IMG/VR virus record: IMGVR_UViG_2925914267_000002 | Length of the DNA: 28,749 nucleotides | Origin: a virus | Lineage: Duplodnaviria > Heunggongvirae > Uroviricota > Caudoviricetes | Direction: 5' to 3' (one strand) | In this document: piece by piece, positions 1,659-28,749 of the stretch | Layout: every line of letters begins with the position of its first letter | How positions within the stretch are numbered: position 1 is the stretch's first letter | Translations under genes and position numbers: made by a program | The notes under the pieces: generated by a model | The model's input: only the letters and a program-made list of their open reading frames with translations | What the model was told of the DNA's origin: nothing | Database searches by the model: none

Positions 1659-4130
1659 TTAAGAATCAGCCTGACTCGGGATCAGTTTTTGCCAGATAAC
1701 TGAAACGTATTTTGCCTGGTAACGGGCGTCATCAAGTGCATTATGGCGCTCACCTTCGAATGGAATAGCCGTTCTGGCATCGAAGTCTATGGCTTTCCCC
1801 AGCTCAACGATTGTGCGTACATCGCGATCGTTGTAGTAACGCCACGGGCAGGGGATCCCCTGCCGTTCGTATGAACGGCGCAAAATCGTGTTGTCGAAGT
1901 TGGCTCCATTTCCCCAAACCTGAACAAAAAATTCACCGGAGTTTTCGTCGATAAATTCCCGCAATTGTAACAGTGCATCATCTAACGGGATTTCATCGGT
2001 CATAATGGCAGATTGCGCTTCGCGTGATTGCTTAAGCCACCATTTAATGGTGTCCCGATCAATGACTCCGCCAGCAGTTTCCAGATCGATAGTCTTACTA
2101 AATTCCGGTCCCATATCTCCGGTTTGCGGATCGAAAAATATTGCACCTATTGAGATGATCGGGGCATCAGGATTTTTTCCCATGGTTTCAAGGTCGATCA
2201 TTAGATGGTCACACGTCCTGCTGGTGGATGTGATTTCATGATGACCGTTCACCTTAATTGAGTGATCTGCCGTCTCGCCAGTTTCATTATCGCTATTGTG
2301 ATGCTGATTGCCGCCAGTGTTCTCCTTGTGTGGATGTTCAGCGCCTTCCATTTCCTCCGGATCATCTTCCTGAACTTCAACCTGATACTCTTCATCGAAT
2401 GTTTCCTGGTATGTTGCGTCGCCCATCACCGCGCCACAATCAGGGCAGTTGCCGCCGCCGGTCTGACCGCAGGCGGTGCAGACTTTTTCCACTTCCTGTT
2501 GCGCCACTGGTTCAGGCTGTTTCGTTTCTGGCTCGTTTTGTAACGCATTTGGGCTGTTTTGTTCCGCTTTTTGGTAGTTCCGTTCCGATTCATGCTGGTT
2601 CTGGTTCACAGAATCGCGGGTCTGGATCCCCTTAACCCATTTCGGATCATTCGGGTCACTAATCCCTTCAACAAATTCACCACGTGATGCAGCAAGCAAC
2701 TTATCGGCGTCAGGCTGGCTGATATTGGCTGCCTGCATAATTTTGTTTACTTCGTCAGCGGTAACTTTTATCGGTTCTGGTTGTTCTGAATCTTCAGCGG
2801 TATCTACATTTTGCGGTAAGCCCGTGTATGTGCCATTTTTTCGGGCAAAATATTCTTCTTTTGTGATTTCAGTGGCGCCAGCAGCCAGTGCCTTATCCAG
2901 ACCAGAAAGTTTGTTTGCGCGACCGTATTTTTCTCCGTCCTTATCTGCGAAGAGGAAATAGAACGGCCCCTCACGCTCTACAGATGGTTCAGCTTCCGGC
3001 GCGGTTTCATTTTTTGGGATATCAGATACCTCAGTTTCCACTGCATCAGTTTGTGTTTCTGATGACTGGAGAACATCAACAGTGCCCAGGTCTGTTTCTT
3101 CATTCTCAAACACGCCCTTTGTCGTCAGGTATTCGCAGATATATTTGTTCAGTGCTACGGGATCTTTGTGAATGTCGATCGGACGCTCACGGACAAGGCC
3201 AAAAATAGTTTGGCGGTCGTAGCGAAGGGCATCAGGCTGTTTGCGCATTGATGCCGAGATACGCTTCCAGTCTTCGCGGTCGTTGTCGATAACTTCTTTT
3301 TTTGCCCAGCGATGGATGCTGCCGTCAATGTTTCCGGCATCCACATCACCAGGCCAGAGAGCGTAGGCCAGTTCGTCATCCAGTGTTTTCCATGTCTGCT
3401 TGTATTCGCGATGAATGGCAGCAATGACCGGGCTGATTTTTCCTGTTGAATTTTCAGTGTACTGTTGATTGGCTCTGGTGCGGGCGAGATCAACAACAGA
3501 CGTGTATTTTCCGGTTTCCTTGCGTTCACCTTCGCGACGTTTTTTCCAGATGCGCATCTCTGCCTGAATTTCGGGCCATTTAGCACCAGGAATACATTTA
3601 TGCTTAACCCACCCAATGGCGTGCAACTTAAGCTCCGGAAACATGGCGTTAACTTCTGGCATTTTCATCAACGCTTCAACGATATGTCCGTCGAATGTTG
3701 CCATGTCTTCCTGCAACAATTCCTGTGCGCTAATAACCATATCAACGGTGATGTTTTCACATGTGTCGAACTTAACCATGACAGCGTTCTGTACTTCAGG
3801 GGCCAGCTTGTCAAAAGTGACGTTCATCGGATCGGATTTAGTCTCAACCGGGACAAAAGAAGCAGACTCCTCATCCCAGCGGTTTTCCTGCATATATTCA
3901 GCATCCCATGAATCGAGGGCAGGGCGGGGTATGCCAGGTTTATCCTCGCAGACAATAAATTTATAAGCGCAGTCCTGAGCAGCCGGATAATGTTCCAGGA
4001 ACTGCCAGTGAAATTTTGCTCGAGCACGGCGTTCGTCGCCAGCTTCAATGGCTGTGGCTACAGCCACAGCGCCTTCTTCCCTTGTTGCCAGTTCGTCAGG
4101 AATAGCGGCGCAAATAAAGACTTTACTCAT
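1659..4130 (-). CDS. Large prophage exonuclease with C-terminal DEDDh 3'-5' exonuclease domain (often annotated exodeoxyribonuclease VIII-like)
   Basis: 823-aa ORF. C-terminal motifs HLMIDLETMG (Exo I D-x-E), WGNGANFD (Exo II) and HNALDDARY (Exo III H-x4-D). Central acidic low-complexity linker containing a CxxC-x13-CxxC zinc-ribbon-like motif (CTACGQTGGGNCPDCG). Confidence 0.7.
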   Translation of the reverse strand: MSKVFICAAIPDELATREEGAVAVATAIEAGDERRARAKFHWQFLEHYPAAQDCAYKFIVCEDKPGIPRPALDSWDAEYMQENRWDEESASFVPVETKSDPMNVTFDKLAPEVQNAVMVKFDTCENITVDMVISAQELLQEDMATFDGHIVEALMKMPEVNAMFPELKLHAIGWVKHKCIPGAKWPEIQAEMRIWKKRREGERKETGKYTSVVDLARTRANQQYTENSTGKISPVIAAIHREYKQTWKTLDDELAYALWPGDVDAGNIDGSIHRWAKKEVIDNDREDWKRISASMRKQPDALRYDRQTIFGLVRERPIDIHKDPVALNKYICEYLTTKGVFENEETDLGTVDVLQSSETQTDAVETEVSDIPKNETAPEAEPSVEREGPFYFLFADKDGEKYGRANKLSGLDKALAAGATEITKEEYFARKNGTYTGLPQNVDTAEDSEQPEPIKVTADEVNKIMQAANISQPDADKLLAASRGEFVEGISDPNDPKWVKGIQTRDSVNQNQHESERNYQKAEQNSPNALQNEPETKQPEPVAQQEVEKVCTACGQTGGGNCPDCGAVMGDATYQETFDEEYQVEVQEDDPEEMEGAEHPHKENTGGNQHHNSDNETGETADHSIKVNGHHEITSTSRTCDHLMIDLETMGKNPDAPIISIGAIFFDPQTGDMGPEFSKTIDLETAGGVIDRDTIKWWLKQSREAQSAIMTDEIPLDDALLQLREFIDENSGEFFVQVWGNGANFDNTILRRSYERQGIPCPWRYYNDRDVRTIVELGKAIDFDARTAIPFEGERHNALDDARYQAKYVSVIWQKLIPSQADS

Positions 4131-4223: not shown

Positions 4224-4415
4224 TTAAAGACCTGCCGGGATTTCGATATTATCCTGGTGAATAACTTTATCGACCGGGTAACAGTTACCGGGAATTTTCT
4301 GTTCGGTTGCTGCAGTCATACACTCCTGCATTGTCTTGTGAACACTGACTGCAATATCAACTGGCTCTCCGGAAACAAGAAAAACTGTCAGAACAAGCGC
4401 AAATGCTGAATTCAT
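4224..4415 (-). CDS. ydfD: YdfD-like small protein (start at internal Met of the 81-aa track ORF)
   Basis: 63-aa product MNSAFALVLTVFLVSGEP... with hydrophobic N-terminus; start overlaps the dicB stop (operon coupling). Resembles K-12 Qin YdfD as I recall it. Confidence 0.6.
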   Translation of the reverse strand: MNSAFALVLTVFLVSGEPVDIAVSVHKTMQECMTAATEQKIPGNCYPVDKVIHQDNIEIPAGL

Positions 4416-4580
4416 TGTGCACATCCTTTTGGCATCAGACGTAAACGAGCCAGCATTGAAACAATGCATATTTTATTTAATAGCTCCCGTTCTTGTTTTC
4501 TCTTGTTAATGGCATCTTCAGTAAATACAGGGTTACTGATAGTGACACCAATTTCAAAACAACCTTCAGACGTATTAACG
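4412..4580 (-). pseudogene. dicB: dicB cell-division inhibitor, codons 8 to end, separated from its start by the IS600-like insertion
   Basis: Track ORF 4412-4606 reads MSVKLRLPH-VNTSEGCFEIGVTISNPVFTEDAINKRKQERELLNKICIVSMLARLRLMPKGCAQ. From VNTSEGC onward this matches DicB; the first 9 residues are encoded by the IS left end (IS starts at 4581). Confidence 0.75.
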
Positions 4581-4644
4581 TGAGGTAGCCTGAGTTTAAC
4601 GGACACTCCTTCCTGAAATAGAATGGCATCAGAAGGAGCTAATA

Positions 4645-4947
4645 ATGAGCAGAAAAACCCAACGTTACTCTAAAGAGTTCAAAGCCGAAGCTGTCAGAAC
4701 GGTTCTTGAAAATCAACTTTCGATCAGTGAAGGCGCTTCCCGATTATCTCTTCCTGAAGGCACTTTAGGGCAATGGGTTACCGCCGCCAGAAAAGGGCTC
4801 GGTACTCCTGGTTCCCGCACGGTGGCTGAACTGGAATCTGAAATTCTGCAACTGCGTAAGGCGTTAAATGAAGCTCGCCTTGAGCGAGATATATTAAAAA
4901 AAGCAACAGCGTATTTTGCACAGGAGTCGCTGAAAAATACGCGTTAA
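4645..4947 (+). CDS. IS3-family transposase OrfA (HTH)
   Basis: 100-aa ORF MSRKTQRYSKEFKAEAVRTV... with a leucine-zipper-like C-terminus typical of IS3-family OrfA. Confidence 0.9.
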   Translation: MSRKTQRYSKEFKAEAVRTVLENQLSISEGASRLSLPEGTLGQWVTAARKGLGTPGSRTVAELESEILQLRKALNEARLERDILKKATAYFAQESLKNTR

Positions 4948-4982
4948 TCGAACAATGGCGACAACAATTTCCCATTGAAGCG

Positions 4983-5801
4983 ATGTGTCAGGTATTTGGT
5001 GTATCCAGGAGCGGTTATTACAACTGGGTACAGCATGAACCCTCAGACAGAAAACAAAGTGATGAGCGGCTAAAACTGGAGATTAAGGTGGCACATATCC
5101 GCACTCGCGAAACATATGGAACCCGGCGGCTCCAGACGGAGCTGGCAGAGAATGGCATCATCGTTGGTCGTGACCGACTGGCACGTCTTCGTAAGGAGCT
5201 AAGGCTACGCTGTAAGCAGAAACGCAAGTTCAGAGCGACTACGAACTCGAACCACAATCTGCCAGTTGCGCCAAATCTGCTGAACCAGACGTTCGCTCCT
5301 ACAGCACCAAATCAGGTCTGGGTGGCGGACCTGACGTATGTTGCCACACAGGAGGGATGGTTGTACCTCGCTGGCATCAAAGATGTTTATACGTGCGAAA
5401 TTGTCGGCTACGCCATGGGAGAGCGCATGACAAAAGAGCTGACAGGTAAAGCCCTGTTTATGGCGCTCAGGAGCCAGCGCCCACCTGCCGGGCTAATCCA
5501 CCACTCTGATCGAGGTTCACAGTACTGCGCATACGATTACCGGGTCATACAGGAGCAGTTTGGTCTGAAAACATCAATGTCGCGTAAAGGTAACTGTTAC
5601 GACAACGCTCCGATGGAAAGCTTCTGGGGAACGCTGAAAAATGAGAGCCTGAGCCACTATCGTTTTAATAACCGGGATGAAGCCATCTCAGTAATACGGG
5701 AATACATTGAGATTTTCTACAATCGTCAGCGTCGTCACTCTCGTCTGGGGAATATCTCCCCGGCAGCCTTCAGGGAAAAATATCATCAGATAGCTGCTTA
5801 A
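4983..5801 (+). CDS. IS3-family transposase OrfB (DDE catalytic domain), probably expressed as an OrfAB fusion by -1 frameshift
   Basis: 272 aa from the first Met, in the -1 frame relative to orfA. Contains DDE-type integrase-core motifs (WVADLTY, HSDRGSQY, YDNAPMESFW). Confidence 0.9.
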   Translation: MCQVFGVSRSGYYNWVQHEPSDRKQSDERLKLEIKVAHIRTRETYGTRRLQTELAENGIIVGRDRLARLRKELRLRCKQKRKFRATTNSNHNLPVAPNLLNQTFAPTAPNQVWVADLTYVATQEGWLYLAGIKDVYTCEIVGYAMGERMTKELTGKALFMALRSQRPPAGLIHHSDRGSQYCAYDYRVIQEQFGLKTSMSRKGNCYDNAPMESFWGTLKNESLSHYRFNNRDEAISVIREYIEIFYNRQRRHSRLGNISPAAFREKYHQIAA

Positions 5802-5844
5802 AAAAAGAACAAATGGTAGTGTCCGCTATTGCCAGTACACCTCA

Positions 5845-5867
5845 ACGTTTGGTAATAACGTTTTCAT
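5845..5867 (-). pseudogene. dicB: dicB N-terminal fragment (start codon and first 7 codons), detached by the IS600-like insertion
   Basis: Reverse complement of 5845-5867 reads ATG AAA ACG TTA TTA CCA AAC GT = MKTLLPN(V). Removing the IS and one ACG repeat rejoins it in frame with VNTSEGC at 4580. Confidence 0.75.
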
Positions 5868-6036
5868 TATGGCGTCCTCAACAATGAATTTTGTGATGCA
5901 GTGCCTGGTGCCTCCAGGTGACGTTAACCAGTTAACAATTAACGCCGGATACAGAGAATCCACCCATAACACTGTTTTTGGTTTTAACTGTTCCGCGTGC
6001 GCTTAGCCGCATTCACCGCATCACAAAATTCACTTT

Positions 6037-6094
6037 AAAAACGGCGGCAGAGCAGTCACGGAGTAAAACTGATACCGCCAAACGTCACCAGAAA
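6037..6094 (-). ncRNA. dicF: DicF small regulatory RNA, with terminator U-tract
   Basis: Minus-strand sequence TTTCTGGTGACGTTTGGCGGTATCAGTTTTACTCCGTGACTGCTCTGCCGCCGTTTTT matches the DicF sRNA as I recall it. Lies between the ydfA-like genes and dicB as in K-12 Qin; 3' GC-rich stem plus U-run. Confidence 0.75.
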
Positions 6095-7260: not shown

Positions 7261-7668
7261 TTATTGATGCTTGTTGCGTTTGCGAGCCTCTAATAGCTCG
7301 GTGAACAGGCGATTAAAATTCTCAACGCGGGCGCGGAGTTCGCTGAGTTGTGCTTGTTGCTCTGATTTAGGAAGTGCGCGATACAAACGCAGCATCTCTA
7401 ACTCATCTTCCGATAAGTCTAAGGCACTATCGAGTGAAACAGGGGGAGCTGGTGTTTTGTCCTCGTCGCCAAACAGTATCCAGGTTGGTGAACATTGCAA
7501 TACCTCGGCGAGGCGATGCAAATTTTGCCCGCGCGGGGCTGTATGGTCACTTTCCCATAATGAAATTGATGAGCCAGATACGCCAGCAGCTTTGCTTAAA
7601 CCGTTTTGACTTAAGCCTACCTGCTTACGTCTTTCTCTAATGCGTTGACCTAAAGTTTTCTCGTTCAT
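7261..7668 (-). CDS. dicA: DicA-like HTH (XRE-family) repressor, cI analogue
   Basis: 135-aa product from internal Met (MNEKTLGQRIRERRKQVGLSQ...). HTH motif and the stretch VLQCSPTWILFGDEDK match DicA as I recall it; divergent from a Cro/DicC-like gene. Confidence 0.85.
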   Translation of the reverse strand: MNEKTLGQRIRERRKQVGLSQNGLSKAAGVSGSSISLWESDHTAPRGQNLHRLAEVLQCSPTWILFGDEDKTPAPPVSLDSALDLSEDELEMLRLYRALPKSEQQAQLSELRARVENFNRLFTELLEARKRNKHQ

Positions 7669-10489: not shown

Positions 10490-10816
10490 ATGACTAAAAA
10501 TACTCGTTTTTCCCCCGAAGTCCGTCAGCGGGCGATTCGTATGGTTCTGGAAAGTCAGGATGAATATGACTCACAGTGGGCGGCAATTTGTTCCATTGCC
10601 CCAAAGATTGGCTGTACGCCGGAGACTCTGCGTGTCTGGGTTCGCCAGCATGAGCGGGATACCGGGGGCGGTGATGGTGGGCTCACCAGTGCTGAACGTC
10701 AGCGTCTGAAAGAGCTGGAACGTGAAAATCGTGAACTGCGCCGCAGTAACGATATCCTTCGCCAGGCTTCCGCTTATTTTGCGAAGGCGGAGTTCGACCG
10801 CCTCTGGAAAAAATGA
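10490..10816 (+). CDS. IS629 transposase OrfA
   Basis: 108-aa [26 protein letters not shown]..., typical IS3-family OrfA. Confidence 0.9.
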
Positions 10817-11703
10817 TGCCACTGCTGGATAAGCTGCGTGAGCAGTACGGGGTCGGACCGGTATGCAGCGAACTGCATATTGCCCCGTCAACGTATTACC
10901 ATTGTCAGCAACAGCGACATCATCCGGATAAACGCAGTGCCCGTGCGCAGCACGACGACTGGCTGAAGAGAGAGATACAGCGCGTATACGATGAAAATCA
11001 TCAGGTGTACGGTGTGCGTAAAGTCTGGCGTCAGTTGTTACGGGAAGGAATCAGGGTAGCCAGATGTACAGTGGCGCGCCTCATGGCGGTTATGGGACTT
11101 GCCGGTGTTCTCCGGGGTAAAAAGGTCCGCACTACCGTCAGCCGGAAAGCCGTTGCCGCAGGCGACCGCGTAAACCGTCAGTTTGTGGCAGAACGACCTG
11201 ACCAGCTGTGGGTGGCTGATTTTACTTACGTCAGCACATGGCAGGGCTTCGTCTATGTGGCGTTTATCATTGATGTGTTTGCCGGATACATCGTGGGGTG
11301 GCGGGTCTCATCGTCTATGGAAACGACATTCGTGCTGGATGCGCTGGAGCAGGCGTTGTGGGCCCGTCGTCCGTCTGGCACCATCCATCACAGCGATAAA
11401 GGCTCTCAGTATGTGTCACTGGCCTATACGGAGCGACTAAAAGAAGCCGGATTACTGGCATCAACAGGGAGTACAGGCGACTCGTATGACAACGCGATGG
11501 CTGAGAGCATCAATGGTCTTTACAAAGCGGAGGTAATACACCGTAAGAGCTGGAAAAACCGTGCAGAAGTGGAACTGGCCACACTAACGTGGGTGGACTG
11601 GTATAACAATCGACGATTGCTGGGAAGGCTGGGCCATACTCCTCCGGCAGAAGCAGAAAAAGCTTATTATGCTTCCATCGGAAACGATGATCTGGCAGCC
11701 TGA
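10813..11703 (+). CDS. IS629 transposase OrfB (DDE domain)
   Basis: 296-aa ORF overlapping orfA (ATGA); DDE-type motifs [25 protein letters not shown]. Confidence 0.9.
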
Positions 11704-13185: not shown

Positions 13186-13859
13186 GTCGTCACCTTGATG
13201 ATTTGTTAATGCGGGGGCAACATTAATAAATGTACTTGAGACCGCAATTTGTCGATGGAGCCAACATTTATAACTATGTGCTTCTACCCTCTGAATTTTT
13301 ACATGTGAATTGCTAGCTTGAATAGCTCTATCATTATATACGTGGCACTAAATTATGGCTGTTTTTCGCTCAAAGCGGACTAGAAGGTTAGCTTGTGTCG
13401 GACTTTGCGTATTAAAAGAAGTGCTGGTGGTGACTAGTGGTTGTGCCCCATTTCCACAGAAAAAATCAGAGAAACTATACCCAATAGTTGTATTGAATCA
13501 CTGACGAGACAGCCTCATATTCATCAGGACTGGTCTACGTCCAATACAGGAGGTTGTGGTGCTGGTTCTCAAATGTGCGCTGGCTATTACGGCTGTAATG
13601 GCGATTTATTGTCTTGCTATTGTTCTTATGGATCGCCTTTCTGACTGATTTCATATTGGCGAGGTAACGGTAGTTAAGTAGAATGGCTGCGGGTGCTTGA
13701 GGCTATCTGCCTCGGGCATGAACACCAAAGGCAGATAGAGAAAAGCCCCAGTTAACATTACGCGTCCTGCAAGACGCTTAACATTAATCTGAGGCCAATT
13801 TCATGCTAGACACATGTAGGTTAGCCTCTTACGTGCCGAAAGGCAAGGAGAAGCAGGCT

Positions 13860-14015
13860 ATGAAGCAGCAAAAGGCGATGTTAATCGCCCTGATCGTCAT
13901 CTGTTTAACCGTCATAGTGACGGCACTGGTAACGAGGAAAGACCTCTGCGAGGTACGAATCCGAACCGGCCAGACGGAGGTCGCTGTCTTCACAGCTTAC
14001 GAACCTGAGGAGTAA
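13860..14015 (+). CDS. hokD: Hok-family type I toxin (HokD/RelF-like)
   Basis: 51-aa product MKQQKAMLIALIVICLTVIVTALVTRKDLCEVRIRTGQTEVAVFTAYEPEE from ATG 13860 (RBS AAGGAGAA); single TM helix; matches HokD/RelF as I recall it. An in-frame ATG at 13803 extends the frame by 19 codons. Confidence 0.9.
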   Translation: MKQQKAMLIALIVICLTVIVTALVTRKDLCEVRIRTGQTEVAVFTAYEPEE

Positions 14016-14231: not shown

Positions 14232-14483
14232 ATGATGAACATCGAAGAACTGCGTAAAATTTTTTGTGAAGATGGCCTCTATGCTGTGTGCGTTGAAAAT
14301 GGAAATCTTGTTAGTCATTACCGCATTATGTGTTTGCGAAAGAATGGGGCTGCGTTAATTAATTTTGTGGATGGTCGAGTGACAGACAGATTTATCTTGC
14401 GCGAAGGTGAGTTTGTCACTTCATTACAGGCACTGAAAGAGATCGGAATAAAAGCAGGCTTTTCAGCTTTTGCAGAAGAATAA
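14232..14483 (+). CDS. rem: Rem-like prophage protein
   Basis: 83-aa ORF MMNIEELRKIFCEDGLYAV... located directly after hokD as in K-12 Qin (rem-hokD neighbourhood, from memory). Confidence 0.6.
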   Translation: MMNIEELRKIFCEDGLYAVCVENGNLVSHYRIMCLRKNGAALINFVDGRVTDRFILREGEFVTSLQALKEIGIKAGFSAFAEE

Positions 14484-17279: not shown

Positions 17280-17579
17280 AAAAATTCCTTAATACTGATA
17301 ACTTGGCGCACTATACACACGTTCCTGAAGAAAGCTATAGTTTTTTGATGGGGTTGAAGATGGCTGGATGTCTAAAATAAACATTGCTTCATATGTTCAA
17401 CTATGCGTTAATGATTGCGTCGGTTTGAAGAACAGACGATATACGAAGTAGTTTACTAAAGCAGTTCTCATTTCAGGTGTTATTCACTTATTCCTTCTTT
17501 GAGTCTCTCCAATTAAGTACGAAGTCGTTTCTGTTATGCAAACCATTTATGCCGAAAGGCTCAAGTTAAGGAATGTAGA

Positions 17580-17795
17580 ATGTCAAATAAAATGACTGGT
17601 TTAGTAAAATGGTTTAACGCTGATAAAGGTTTCGGCTTTATTTCTCCTGTTGATGGTAGTAAAGATGTGTTTGTGCATTTTTCTGCGATTCAGAATGATA
17701 ATTATCGAACCTTATTTGAAGGTCAAAAGGTTACCTTCTCTATAGAGAGTGGTGCTAAAGGTCCTGCAGCAGCAAATGTCATCATTACTGATTAA
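17580..17795 (+). CDS. cspB: Cold-shock protein CspB
   Basis: 71-aa [74 protein letters not shown]; about 300-nt leader region shared divergently with cspF. Confidence 0.9.
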
Positions 17796-18075
17796 AATTC
17801 ATCGCTCGTCTGTATACGATAACGAAGAAGGCTGATGCCTGAGTAGAGATACGGACAGAGTAGTGAATATTGGATCTCTTTAATAAAAAGTAAGGAGGTC
17901 CAATACATGAAACAATGGCTAGCATATTTGGCAAAATCTTAATCAGGAAAAGTATGCTAACCATTGTGGTGAAGTGCAGGTTTGCTGCATGAATAGTTTT
18001 ACAGCAGAAGCTAACTGCTGGCATGGCAAAACAAAGTGCGTAAGTGGATGACTCCCACAAAAAGCACCACAATCT

Positions 18076-20102: not shown

Positions 20103-20465
20103 GGTAATATTAAATCGGAACATTTACATCGCGGAATGTAAAATTTAAATAAAAAGGACTCTTCCATGAGCCAAAATTCCTGAAATCTTAAGGGTAAGAT
20201 AAAAGGTCTTAATCAGAATGACACGTTTTATTAATAAATAAAGCTATTCTTTCATTGCTGTGTTTTTCTTTACAAAAGTAATCCTTGCTATGGGTGGTTA
20301 ATCATGCGTTAATGGTGTTCTGGTTTGTTACAAATTTATCTGAAGCAGTCATTGTTATAATTTTATTATTTGTACCTCTTGAGATTTCCTTGTTGGTTTT
20401 TCTCTCTGATATTTTTTTTTCGGACCATTCTGCCCAAGGGCTAATTTCTTCAAAAGGTAATAATT

Positions 20466-20678
20466 ATGTCTAACAAAATGACTGGTTTAGTGAAATGGTT
20501 TAACCCTGAAAAAGGTTTTGGTTTCATCACGCCGAAAGATGGCAGCAAAGATGTGTTTGTCCATTTCTCAGCAATTCAGAGCAACGATTTCAAAACATTA
20601 ACTGAGAATCAGGAAGTTGAATTTGGTATTGAGAACGGACCTAAAGGTCCTGCCGCTGTTCATGTAGTGGCGCTTTGA
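20466..20678 (+). CDS. cspI: Cold-shock protein CspI
   Basis: 70-aa [73 protein letters not shown]; long leader (20103-20465). Confidence 0.9.
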
Positions 20679-20711
20679 GGTAGACAATATTACAAACCAT
20701 ATTCACTTTAG

Positions 20712-21182: not shown

Positions 21183-21686
21183 TTATTGATAGTGTTTTAT
21201 GTTCAGATAATGCCCGATGACTTTGTCATGCAGCTCCACCGATTTTGAGAACGACAGCGACTTCCGTCCCAGCCGTGCCAGGTGCTGCCTCAGATTCAGG
21301 TTATGCCGCTCAATTCGCTGCGTATATCGCTTGCTGATTACGTGCAGCTTTCCCTTCAGGCGGGATTCATACAGCGGCCAGCCATCCGTCATCCATATCA
21401 CCACGTCAAAGGGTGACAGCAGGCTCATAAGACGCCCCAGCGTCGCCATAGTGCGTTCACCGAATACGTGCGCAACAACCGTCTTCCGGAGCCTGTCATA
21501 CGCGTAAAACAGCCAGCGCTGGCGCGATTTAGCCCCGACGTATCCCCACTGTTCGTCCATTTCCGCGCAGACGATGACGTCACTGCCCGGCTGTATGCGC
21601 GAGGTTACCGACTGCGGCCTGAGTTTTTTAAGTGACGTAAAATCGTGTTGAGGCCAACGCCCATAATGCGGGCAGTTGCCCGGCAT
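21183..21686 (-). CDS. insB: IS1 InsB (transposase catalytic part, made as InsAB' by frameshift)
   Basis: 167-aa [19 protein letters not shown]... overlapping insA. Confidence 0.95.
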
Positions 21687-21880
21687 CCAACGCCATTCAT
21701 GGCCATATCAATGATTTTCTGGTGCGTACCGGGTTGAGAAGCGGTGTAAGTGAACTGCAGTTGCCATGTTTTACGGCAGTGAGAGCAGAGATAGCGCTGA
21801 TGTCCGGCGGTGCTTTTGCCGTTACGCACCACCCCGTCAGTAGCTGAACAGGAGGGACAGCTGATAGAAACAGAAGCCAC
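21605..21880 (-). CDS. insA: IS1 InsA
   Basis: 91-aa zinc-finger/HTH protein [40 protein letters not shown]... Confidence 0.95.
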
Positions 21881-22807: not shown

Positions 22808-23382
22808 TGGCATTCAGAATGAGTGAACAACCACGGACCATAAAAATTTATAATCTGCTGGCCGGAACTAATGAATTTATTGGTGAAGGTGATGCATATA
22901 TTCCGCCTCATACAGGTCTGCCAGCAAACAGTACCGATATTGCACCGCCAGATATTCCGGCTGGCTTCGTGGCTGTTTTCAACAGTGATGAGTCATCGTG
23001 GCATCTCGTTGAAGATCATCGGGGTAAAACGGTTTATGACGTGGCTTCCGGCGACGCGTTATTTATTTCTGAACTCGGTCCGTTACCGGAAAATGTTACC
23101 TGGTTATCGCCGGAAGGGGAGTTTCAGAAGTGGAACGGCACAGCCTGGGTGAAGGATACGGAAGCAGAAAAACTGTTCCGGATCCGGGAGGCGGAAGAAA
23201 CAAAAAACAACCTGATGCAGGTAGCCAGTGAGCATATTGCGCCGCTTCAGGATGCTGCAGATCTGGAAATCGCAACGGAGGAAGAAATCTCGTTGCTGGA
23301 AGCATGGAAAAAGTATCGGGTATTGCTGAACCGTGTTGATACGTCAACTGCACAGGATATTGAATGGCCAGCACTGCCGTAG
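22807..23382 (+). CDS. tfaQ: Tail fibre assembly protein (Tfa)
   Basis: 191-aa ORF; start overlaps the stf stop (TAATG); Tfa-like sequence and position. Confidence 0.85.
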
Positions 23383-24569: not shown

Positions 24570-25436
24570 CTAAGCGAGGTTCTTGTTTTCAAATTGTTCC
24601 GGACTGAGGCCGCCACACCAACTGTGCCGCCGCCACCGATTGTAATCACATTCGATATAATTAAACACCGTTGCCCGCATTATTTCCCGGCTGATAAAGT
24701 GTTCTCCATGGATACATTCCACTTTCAGCGAATGAAAGAAGCTTTCCACGCAGGCATTATCGTAGCAGCAACCTTTTGCGCTCATACTTCCACGCAGATT
24801 ATGCCGCTTCAGTTGCGCCTGATAATCTGCTGAACAGTACTGGCCTCCACGGTCCGTGTGAACGATAACGTTCCGGGGCCTCTTACGCCGCCACAGCGCC
24901 ATCTGCAGGGCATCGCAGGCCAGTTGCGCCGTCATGCGTGGCGACATTGACCAGCCAATAACGGCACGTGACCACAGGTCAATGACCACTGCCAGATACA
25001 GCCAGCCTTCATCTGTACGTAAGTACGTGATGTCTCCTGCCCACTTCTGGTTCGGGCCACTGGCGTAAAAATCCTGCTCCAACAGATTTTCTGACACAGG
25101 CAGGCCGTGTGCGCGGTAGCTGACCGGGCTGAACTTCCGGGAGGCCTTTGCCCTCAGTCCCTGACGGCGCAGGCTTGCCGCCACGGTTTTTACGTTAAAG
25201 GGGTAACCCTGAGCACGCAGTTCATCCGTCAGGCGTGGGGCACCGTAACGCTGTTTTGACCGGGTAAAAGCCGCGAGGACAACGCTGTCGCAGTGTTGGC
25301 GGAACTGCTGACGCGTGCTTATCCTTGTCCGCCGCTGACACCACGTATACCAGCCGCTGCGGGCCACCCGGAGCACGCGGCACATTGCTTTGATGCTGAA
25401 CTCAGCCTGATGTTTTTCAATAAAGACATACTTCAT
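24570..25436 (-). CDS. insF: IS3 transposase OrfB (InsF)
   Basis: 288-aa DDE-domain ORF overlapping orfA. Confidence 0.95.
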
Positions 25437-25741
25437 TTCAGGCGCTTCGCGAAGTATGTCGCGGCCTTTTGGAGGATAGCCAGCTCTTCATCCCGTTCTG
25501 CCAGCTGGCGTTTGAGACGTGCAATCTCGGTAGACATCTCCAGTTCACGTTCAGAAGACGTCTGCTGATTTTGCTGTTTACTGCGCCAGTTGTAGAGTTG
25601 TGATTCATACAGGCTGAGTTCACGGGCTGCGGCAGTAACACCGATGCGTTCAGCAAGCTTCAGGGCTTCACTGCGAAATTCAGGCGAATGCTGTTTACGG
25701 GGTTTTTTACTGGTTGATACTGTTTTTGTCATGTGAGTCAC
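25433..25741 (-). CDS. insE: IS3 transposase OrfA (InsE)
   Basis: 102-aa [38 protein letters not shown]... Confidence 0.95.
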
Positions 25742-28051: not shown

Positions 28052-28327
28052 GTGGCTTCTGTTTCTATCAGCTGTCCCTCCTGTTCAGCTACTGACGGGG
28101 TGGTGCGTAACGGCAAAAGCACCGCCGGACATCAGCGCTATCTCTGCTCTCACTGCCGTAAAACATGGCAACTGCAGTTCACTTACACCGCTTCTCAACC
28201 CGGTACGCACCAGAAAATCATTGATATGGCCATGAATGGCGTTGGATGCCGGGCAACTGCCCGCATTATGGGCGTTGGCCTCAACACGATTTTACGTCAC
28301 TTAAAAAACTCAGGCCGCAGTCGGTAA
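28052..28327 (+). CDS. insA: IS1 InsA
   Basis: 91 aa, identical in protein sequence to the insA of the first IS1 copy. Confidence 0.95.
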
Positions 28328-28749
28328 CCTCGCGCATACAGCCGGGCAGTGACGTCATCGTCTGCGCGGAAATGGACGAACAGTGGGGATACGTCGGGGC
28401 TAAATCGCGCCAGCGCTGGCTGTTTTACGCGTATGACAGGCTCCGGAAGACGGTTGTTGCGCACGTATTCGGTGAACGCACTCTGGCCACACTGGAGCGT
28501 CTTCTGAGCCTGCTGTCGGCCTTTGAGGTCGTGGTATGGATGACGGATGGCTGGCCGCTGTATGAATCACGCCTGAAGGGAAAGCTGCACGTTATCAGCA
28601 AGCGTTACACTCAGCGCATTGAGCGACATAATCTGAATCTGAGACAACATCTGGCAAGGCTGGGACGGAAGTCGCTGTCGTTCTCAAAATCGGTGGAGCT
28701 GCATGACAAAGTCATCGGGCATTATCTGAACATAAAACACTATCAATAA
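28246..28749 (+). CDS. insB: IS1 InsB (variant isoform)
   Basis: 167 aa; differs from the first copy at several clustered positions ([20 protein letters not shown] vs [20 protein letters not shown]). Confidence 0.95.

Follow-up and report, generated by a model that had tools for sequence, protein, structure and literature searches.

The stretch of DNA analysed here, referred to as the window, is a 28,749-nucleotide IMG/VR virus record (IMGVR_UViG_2925914267_000002) that is identical to sequence of Escherichia coli strain 720632 (NZ_CP025842.1), where it corresponds to a cryptic prophage at the Qin site, between rspB and ydfJ. According to its record the strain came from human stool in Pakistan, and it was among the heat-stable-toxin-only enterotoxigenic E. 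coli (ETEC) isolates studied (PMC6446980). The prophage carries a counterpart of the K-12 dicBF operon, with the DicF small RNA (sRNA), the gene of the cell division inhibitor DicB and the lysis gene ydfD, and in this operon dicB is split by a complete copy of the insertion sequence (IS) IS600. The features of the segment, including the open reading frames (ORFs) found at the two junctions with the left and right inverted repeats of the element (IRL and IRR), are the following:

4224-4415, minus strand: ydfD, lysis protein, DUF1482 (Pfam PF07358 and PGAP).
4412-4579, minus strand: dicB codons 8-62 and stop codon, the protein being identical to residues 8-62 of K-12 DicB.
4412-4606, minus strand: hybrid ORF of 64 codons with a GTG start within the IRL (Pfam DicB, PF05358; dicB, WP_074638058.1, in PGAP).
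4578-4580: left 3-bp target-site duplication, ACG (CGT on the dicB strand).
4581-5844, plus strand: complete IS600 (IS3 family), 1264 bp, with 100% identity to annotated copies.
4645-4947, plus strand: IS600 orfA, 100 aa, HTH_Tnp_1 (Pfam PF01527, E = 1.5e-20).
4884-5801, plus strand: IS600 orfB frame, -1 relative to orfA, rve DDE integrase core (PF00665, E = 3.2e-26).
5826-5867, minus strand: dicB 5' stub, comprising the native Shine-Dalgarno sequence, the ATG, codons 1-7 and IS-derived codons up to a stop (identified from the sequence; a partial DicB pseudogene in PGAP).
5845-5847: right 3-bp target-site duplication, ACG.
6037-6094, minus strand: DicF sRNA (53 nt, 6094-6042) followed by its terminator hairpin and T-run (Rfam, K-12 comparison and fold).

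The native dicB start codon (ATG, 5867-5865) still opens codons 1-7 (MKTLLPN, 5867-5847), and the insertion point falls inside codon 8. With a slash marking the junctions, the minus strand reads ...GAGGACGCCATA ATG AAA ACG TTA TTA CCA AAC GT / TGAGGTGTACTGG... over 5867-5844 and ...GGCTACCTCA / CGT TAA TAC GTC TGA AGG... around 4581-4578, residues 1-7 being set apart from the rest of the protein by 1264 bp. The initial annotation had described a gene split after codon 7 with its remainder in the region 4412-4580, and this description holds. When the IS and one ACG are removed in silico, a 62-codon ORF is restored (MKTLLPNVNTSEGC...GCAQ and stop; MKTLLPNVNTSEGCFEIGVTISNPVFTEDAINKRKQERELLNKICIVSMLARLRLMPKGCAQ and stop) that is identical to K-12 DicB. 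In the interrupted gene, the native GAGGA and ATG now encode a 13-aa peptide, MKTLLPNVEVYWQ, ended by a stop codon, and the native start is no longer linked to the full ORF. At the other junction, the hybrid ORF joins nine IS-encoded residues, MSVKLRLPH, to DicB residues 8-62. The spacer that separates the dicB start codon from its Shine-Dalgarno sequence carries a further substitution, at window position 5871 (GAGGACGCcATAATG); K-12 and the IS-free relative described below both have G there.

IS600 belongs to the IS3 family, was first described in Shigella sonnei and has an ISfinder length of 1264 bp. The element in dicB, which had been anticipated as an IS3-family insertion of that length between ACG repeats, starts with the IRL at 4581 (TGAGGTAGCC...) and ends with the IRR at 5844 (...TACACCTCA), bearing the termini TGAGGT...ACCTCA (TG...CA) within imperfect inverted repeats that agree at 19 of 27 positions. 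The earlier wording "IS600-like" was right as to family and too cautious as to identity, since all 1264 of 1264 bp are identical to copies annotated as "IS3-like element IS600 family transposase". The orfB frame is open from 4884, has its first ATG at 4983 and ends at 5801, and the A7G slippery run expected for the -1 frameshift is found at 4896-4903, inside the overlap of the two ORFs, where PGAP also notes a "programmed frameshift". Every IS600/IS3 hallmark that can be read from sequence is thus present, namely full-length identity, ends, target duplication, frameshift, and DDE and HTH domains; the element differs in nothing from known IS600, and its insertion site alone is peculiar to strain 720632. 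Duplications of 3 bp also flank five other IS600 copies. The intact ORFs, together with the identity to copies in the same genome, suggest that the copy in dicB may be competent for transposition.

The interpretation of this arrangement as an insertion into an ordinary dicB gene is carried by comparison with IS-free relatives. Many genomes contain the restored empty site of 1333 bp without interruption, at 99.9% identity, and annotate it as exonuclease, ydfD and dicB; 3421 genomes match it with at least 80% coverage. The closest IS-free relative fetched (L012, strain 2017.01.04CC) matches the window without its IS along 8.6 kb of colinear sequence (99.69% identity) and has one ACG only at the insertion site. 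Both checks on which the initial annotation had made its reading depend therefore came out in its favour: the flanks are contiguous dicB in genomes without the IS, and the DicB and DicF sequences on which it had relied agree with K-12 and Rfam. The interrupted allele itself is rare. Among 5426 complete E. coli genomes, 3487 contain IS600 and a single one, that of strain 720632, has the IS600-dicB junction; the exact hybrid protein was found in two assemblies only, this complete genome and the draft GCA_001912615.1, and the 32-nt junction was found neither in GTDB species-representative genomes nor in JGI metagenome contigs. Within the 720632 genome, IS600 occupies 17 chromosomal places, and the dicB copy is 100% identical to the others, which is why the insertion is read as a recent, strain-level event. 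It is very likely, in our judgement, that IS600 transposed recently, in this one strain, into codon 8 of the dicB gene of an ETEC cryptic prophage lying at the Qin site.

Judged from sequence, the insertion most likely amounts to a recent loss of function of one dicB copy, polar on ydfD. Native DicB should no longer be producible. No promoter has been found inside the dicBF operon, and dicB relies on transcripts that start at dicBp and read through the DicF terminator (PMC10448788); this published finding supports the earlier proposal that dicB is uncoupled from its operon promoter, which for the present allele is an inference. A dicBp transcript that escapes termination at DicF would now have to extend through 1.26 kb of antisense IS sequence, most of it untranslated, to include the remainder of dicB and ydfD. 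Because the antisense strand of IS600 contains only short, scattered ORFs, Rho-dependent polarity is expected, and it would lower the amounts of dicB-remainder and ydfD transcripts. The ydfD gene would probably also lose translational coupling, since its start codon and the dicB stop codon share bases (ATGA at 4415-4412). In these terms the allele is an instance of the ordinary decay of an IS-riddled cryptic prophage, and one that is already annotated in RefSeq, whose entries comprise the IS600 transposase, the 5' stub as a partial DicB pseudogene, and the hybrid ORF as "dicB" WP_074638058.1.

Several observations weigh against a loss of function that is both complete and polar. Terminator-like hairpins on the antisense IS strand number 5, against 3.5 +/- 1.6 in shuffled sequence, and so show no excess; the C-over-G skew of this strand is modest and lends weak support to Rho utilisation (rut) sites. 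In addition, when the K-L-R-L-P-H of the hybrid is counted back from the junction, its K, L and P fall on native K2, L5 and P6, in agreement with the Pfam alignment. Yang et al. (2016) reported that DicB lacking 2 to 7 N-terminal residues, or carrying L5A, allows colonies to grow and has weak filamentation activity left (PMC4967827). Since it is mutation of L5 that matters, any hybrid protein that is produced could retain more activity than would be left by plain loss of the first seven residues.

The DicF sRNA appears to be spared. It matches Rfam RF00039 at 6042-6093 (minus strand) over model positions 1-52 of 52, scoring 72.5 bits (gathering threshold 48), and its terminator hairpin (-16.6 kcal/mol) is followed by UUUUU. 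The claim that DicF had kept its sequence and terminator stands for the terminator and needs a small correction for the sequence: 52 of 53 bases agree with K-12, the last one (window 6042) being G instead of C. The same G is found in the IS-free L012, and C in K-12 and six other prophage copies, so that the change is unrelated to the IS and represents a lineage variant. With C53G, the stem of the terminator could gain a U-G pair at its base.

In the IS-deleted sequence, the match to K-12 Qin spans window 6311 to 3364 at 98.0% identity, reaching 217 nt upstream of the DicF 5' end, and it consequently includes the region of the 190-nt DicF precursor, in which the cleavage sites of RNase III and RNase E lie. 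Ragunathan et al. (2023) reported that the 5' ends of DicF are generated from the dicBp transcript by RNase III (190-nt form) and RNase E (53-nt form) (PMC10448788). All known DicF requirements lie, by position, upstream of IS600, and DicF production should be unaffected because it needs just these upstream cleavage sites and its own terminator. In this respect nature has supplied a separation-of-function allele, in which DicF is present but native DicB is not. It could serve studies of dicBF, with the caveat that its phenotypes would be confounded by further loci resembling dicB and dicF in strain 720632. On the opposite strand, the IRR holds an outward TTGCCA that forms with the dicB flank a weak, hybrid promoter-like site, TTGCCA-18-TGgTAATAA, at 5829-5858 (plus strand), in which the final T is missing. 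Any transcript from it would run antisense to the dicB stub and, about 190 nt further on, to DicF.

A different view of the same allele is that it was favoured by selection, the silencing of the toxic dicB-ydfD module protecting the host from accidental prophage derepression while DicF is kept. DicB and YdfD are both toxic (PMC4967827, PMC8835842), dicBp is spontaneously on in a subpopulation of cells (PMC10448788), and the same short segment has been hit independently by IS5 in dicB and by IS600 near DicF and near the dicB ATG. The IS5 insertion (L013 1808-3006; NZ_CP030768.1, strain 2017C-4173W12) corresponds to window positions 4574-4577, and its 4-bp target duplication, TTAA, overlaps the IS600 target by one base. 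One IS600 copy lies 62 bp upstream of DicF in the O26 strain RM8426 (L002 3591-4854, target duplication CCC) and another precedes the dicB ATG by about 40 bp in strain 2015C-3163 (L003 3343-4606, target duplication TGG), a pattern also seen in an O103:H2 strain; unlike in 720632, the dicB ORF is intact in both RM8426 and 2015C-3163. Strain LR-58-2 gave the same BLAST pattern as the IS5 allele of 2017C-4173W12.

These hits are, however, a handful of events among roughly 11,000 dicB-region places in 5426 genomes, and the strains that carry them are rich in IS. The coincidence of the IS600 and IS5 positions also loses weight once it is considered that dicB holds 3 candidate YTAR sites for IS5, which makes it a matter of about 1 in 3; an insertion hot spot, suggested by the two elements lying within one base of each other, was rejected on this ground. 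Nor is this copy the only one on the 720632 chromosome: sequence of the dicB-ydfD segment occurs there in 2 places, and that from dicF to the dicB 5' end in 3. At least one further dicB/ydfD-like locus and two further dicF-like loci are thus retained, so that DicB-like and DicF-like functions are probably still supplied by other prophages. The recurrent IS hits leave selection against the toxic module unproven, and a protective origin of the allele seems unlikely to us.

According to another explanation, the insertion did not inactivate dicB but rewired it: MSVKLRLPH would replace MKTLLPN, and a hybrid DicB started at the GTG of the IRL would still inhibit division or ManYZ, provided that transcripts crossing the IS, or born in it, reach the ORF. 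The ORF is open and in frame, and was located correctly in the initial annotation, in composition and in extent, with the exception of its start codon, which is GTG (4606-4604) and not ATG. The hybrid scores 123.5 bits against PF05358 (cut-off 27), with residues 7-64 on profile positions 5-62 and its L-P-H on profile positions 5-7, and the equivalents of K2, L5 and P6 stay in register. The published mutagenesis can be read in its favour, in that K2 is replaceable, alanine is tolerated at positions 3 and 4, and the sensitive residue is L5, and in that full-length dicB was lethal in three different pET vectors and an N-terminal MBP fusion was not (PMC4967827). The same work found, however, that loss of even one N-terminal residue abolishes lethality (PMC4967827), and as the native N-terminus is needed for full toxicity, the hybrid protein, if made, should by analogy be attenuated.

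Expression is a further difficulty for a rewired dicB. The GTG is preceded at 4 nt by an AGGA, but this is a poor Shine-Dalgarno spacing for a start codon that is itself GTG, and the best match, AAGGAG, overlaps the GTG, so the hybrid ORF is probably poorly translated. Some 1.2 kb of largely untranslated RNA precedes it on any transcript arriving from the operon, within which no promoter is known (PMC10448788). The suggestion that the hybrid could be expressed by read-through from the IS fares badly. Since orfA and orfB are on the plus strand and dicB on the minus strand, such read-through cannot be ordinary IS transcription; the predicted transposase promoter (TTAACG-17-TAGAAT, plus strand, 4596-4624, from a promoter scan) is directed away from dicB, and standard and relaxed scans of the minus strand at the IRL for an outward promoter gave nothing convincing, just sites with 19-nt spacers.

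Finally, the IS5 allele of 2017C-4173W12, with its insertion one base away, likewise leaves a 5' stub and an in-frame hybrid that PGAP calls dicB (MISYQGLVRTFL followed by NTSEGC...), here with an unrelated N-terminus, which argues that such ORFs are accidental by-products. A rewired, functional DicB is accordingly judged improbable, and its most specific form, in which the IS residues by chance rebuild the K-x-x-L-P register and make the 64-aa hybrid an active inhibitor of division or ManYZ, an IS-rewired toxin moved from dicBp control to IS-crossing or IS-born transcripts, is more doubtful still. The PGAP name "cell division inhibition protein DicB" for WP_074638058.1 is misleading, the native N-terminus being gone, and with IS600, dicB, DicF and the Qin prophage each already known in detail, the significance of the allele lies mainly in its correct annotation.

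That a repeated IS600 was misplaced at dicB during assembly, as might be feared for an element with 17 chromosomal places in one genome, has next to no likelihood, given that a perfect 3-bp duplication and an exact empty site fit real transposition and that the junction ORF is also present in the independent draft GCA_001912615.1.

With recent inactivation of dicB by IS600 as the preferred reading, the remaining comparison concerns the surrounding prophage. It encodes int, xis, a full-length ydfE-type exonuclease, ydfD, dicB, DicF, a DicA-like repressor, a cro-like gene and hokD/sok, as well as rem, ydfU, ydfT, cspF, cspB, essD, rrrQ, cspI, tfaQ and pinQ. The control region of the operon contributes two further features:

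7261-7668, minus strand: DicA-like repressor, 135 aa, 57% identical to K-12 DicA.
7173-7145, minus strand: dicBp-equivalent promoter-like site, TTGACG-17-TAAATT (promoter scan), aligning to the K-12 dicA-ydfA intergenic region.

The K-12 Qin prophage occupies the same chromosomal site, between rspB and ydfJ, and its dicBF operon (ydfABC-dicF-dicB-ydfD-ydfE) resembles that of the window at 98% identity, the IS left out, in a block that begins 217 nt before DicF and runs past dicB and ydfD into ydfE. The likeness extends to the DicB protein, identical after IS removal, to DicF and to rem, hokD, cspB, cspF and cspI, all present here. The two prophages differ, besides the IS600 that splits dicB in the window, in their repressors, whose 57% identity implies that the immunity region is not that of K-12 Qin, and in the place of ydfB and ydfC, which is taken here by another ORF. 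The window has an intact ydfE-type exonuclease, xis and int; the K-12 prophage, by contrast, has a ydfE cut short at a partial IS2 copy (IS2E) and an intQ annotated as a pseudogene. The antirepressor gene of the dicBF switch, rem, is present in the window although the DicA-like repressor has diverged.

Besides the copies near DicF and near dicB in other Shiga-toxin-type E. coli prophages, IS600 is found elsewhere in the operon, in the exonuclease gene in three cases and in an upstream ORF in one. These copies occupy positions 2501-3764 in L005, L006 and L008 and 3575-4838 in L007, within the early-left operon of other lambdoid prophages. In 7 of 7 cases the IS600 transposase is antisense to the operon, but an orientation bias was rejected because BLAST joining same-strand pieces only would hide opposite insertions. 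The copy in L008 is flanked by GTA on one side and GTC on the other, with no matching 3-bp duplication, and in that locus (1-2500 and 2501-3764) an exonuclease fragment is inverted between two oppositely oriented IS600 copies, which looks like an IS600-mediated inversion. As regards target sequences, the flank at dicB agrees with the IS600 end at 5 of 8 bases outside the duplication (p = 0.03 by a rough estimate). At 3 of 6 IS600 targets (L002, L003 and L005) a CCTCA-like motif stands just outside the IRR (GTCCTCA, GCCTCCA and CTCCTCA) and resembles the terminus ACCTCA, so these sequences hint that IS600 may choose targets near end-like sequences. The literature search retrieved no paper naming DicB together with IS600.

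Four more IS copies are present in the prophage, IS1203, IS1A, IS3 and IS1 (window 10490-11703, 21183-21880, 24570-25732 and 28052-28749). Rfam matches in the prophage comprise sok, beside hokD, two cspA-type thermoregulator leaders (cspB and cspI) and IS009 RNA, with match coordinates 13691-13865, 14232-14483, 17419-17811, 20319-20705 and 23150-23348. IS1203 overlaps a DUF4209 gene and includes an Rfam ALIL pseudoknot at 10771-10887, IS3 splits ydfK, and IS1 adjoins the truncated ydfJ.

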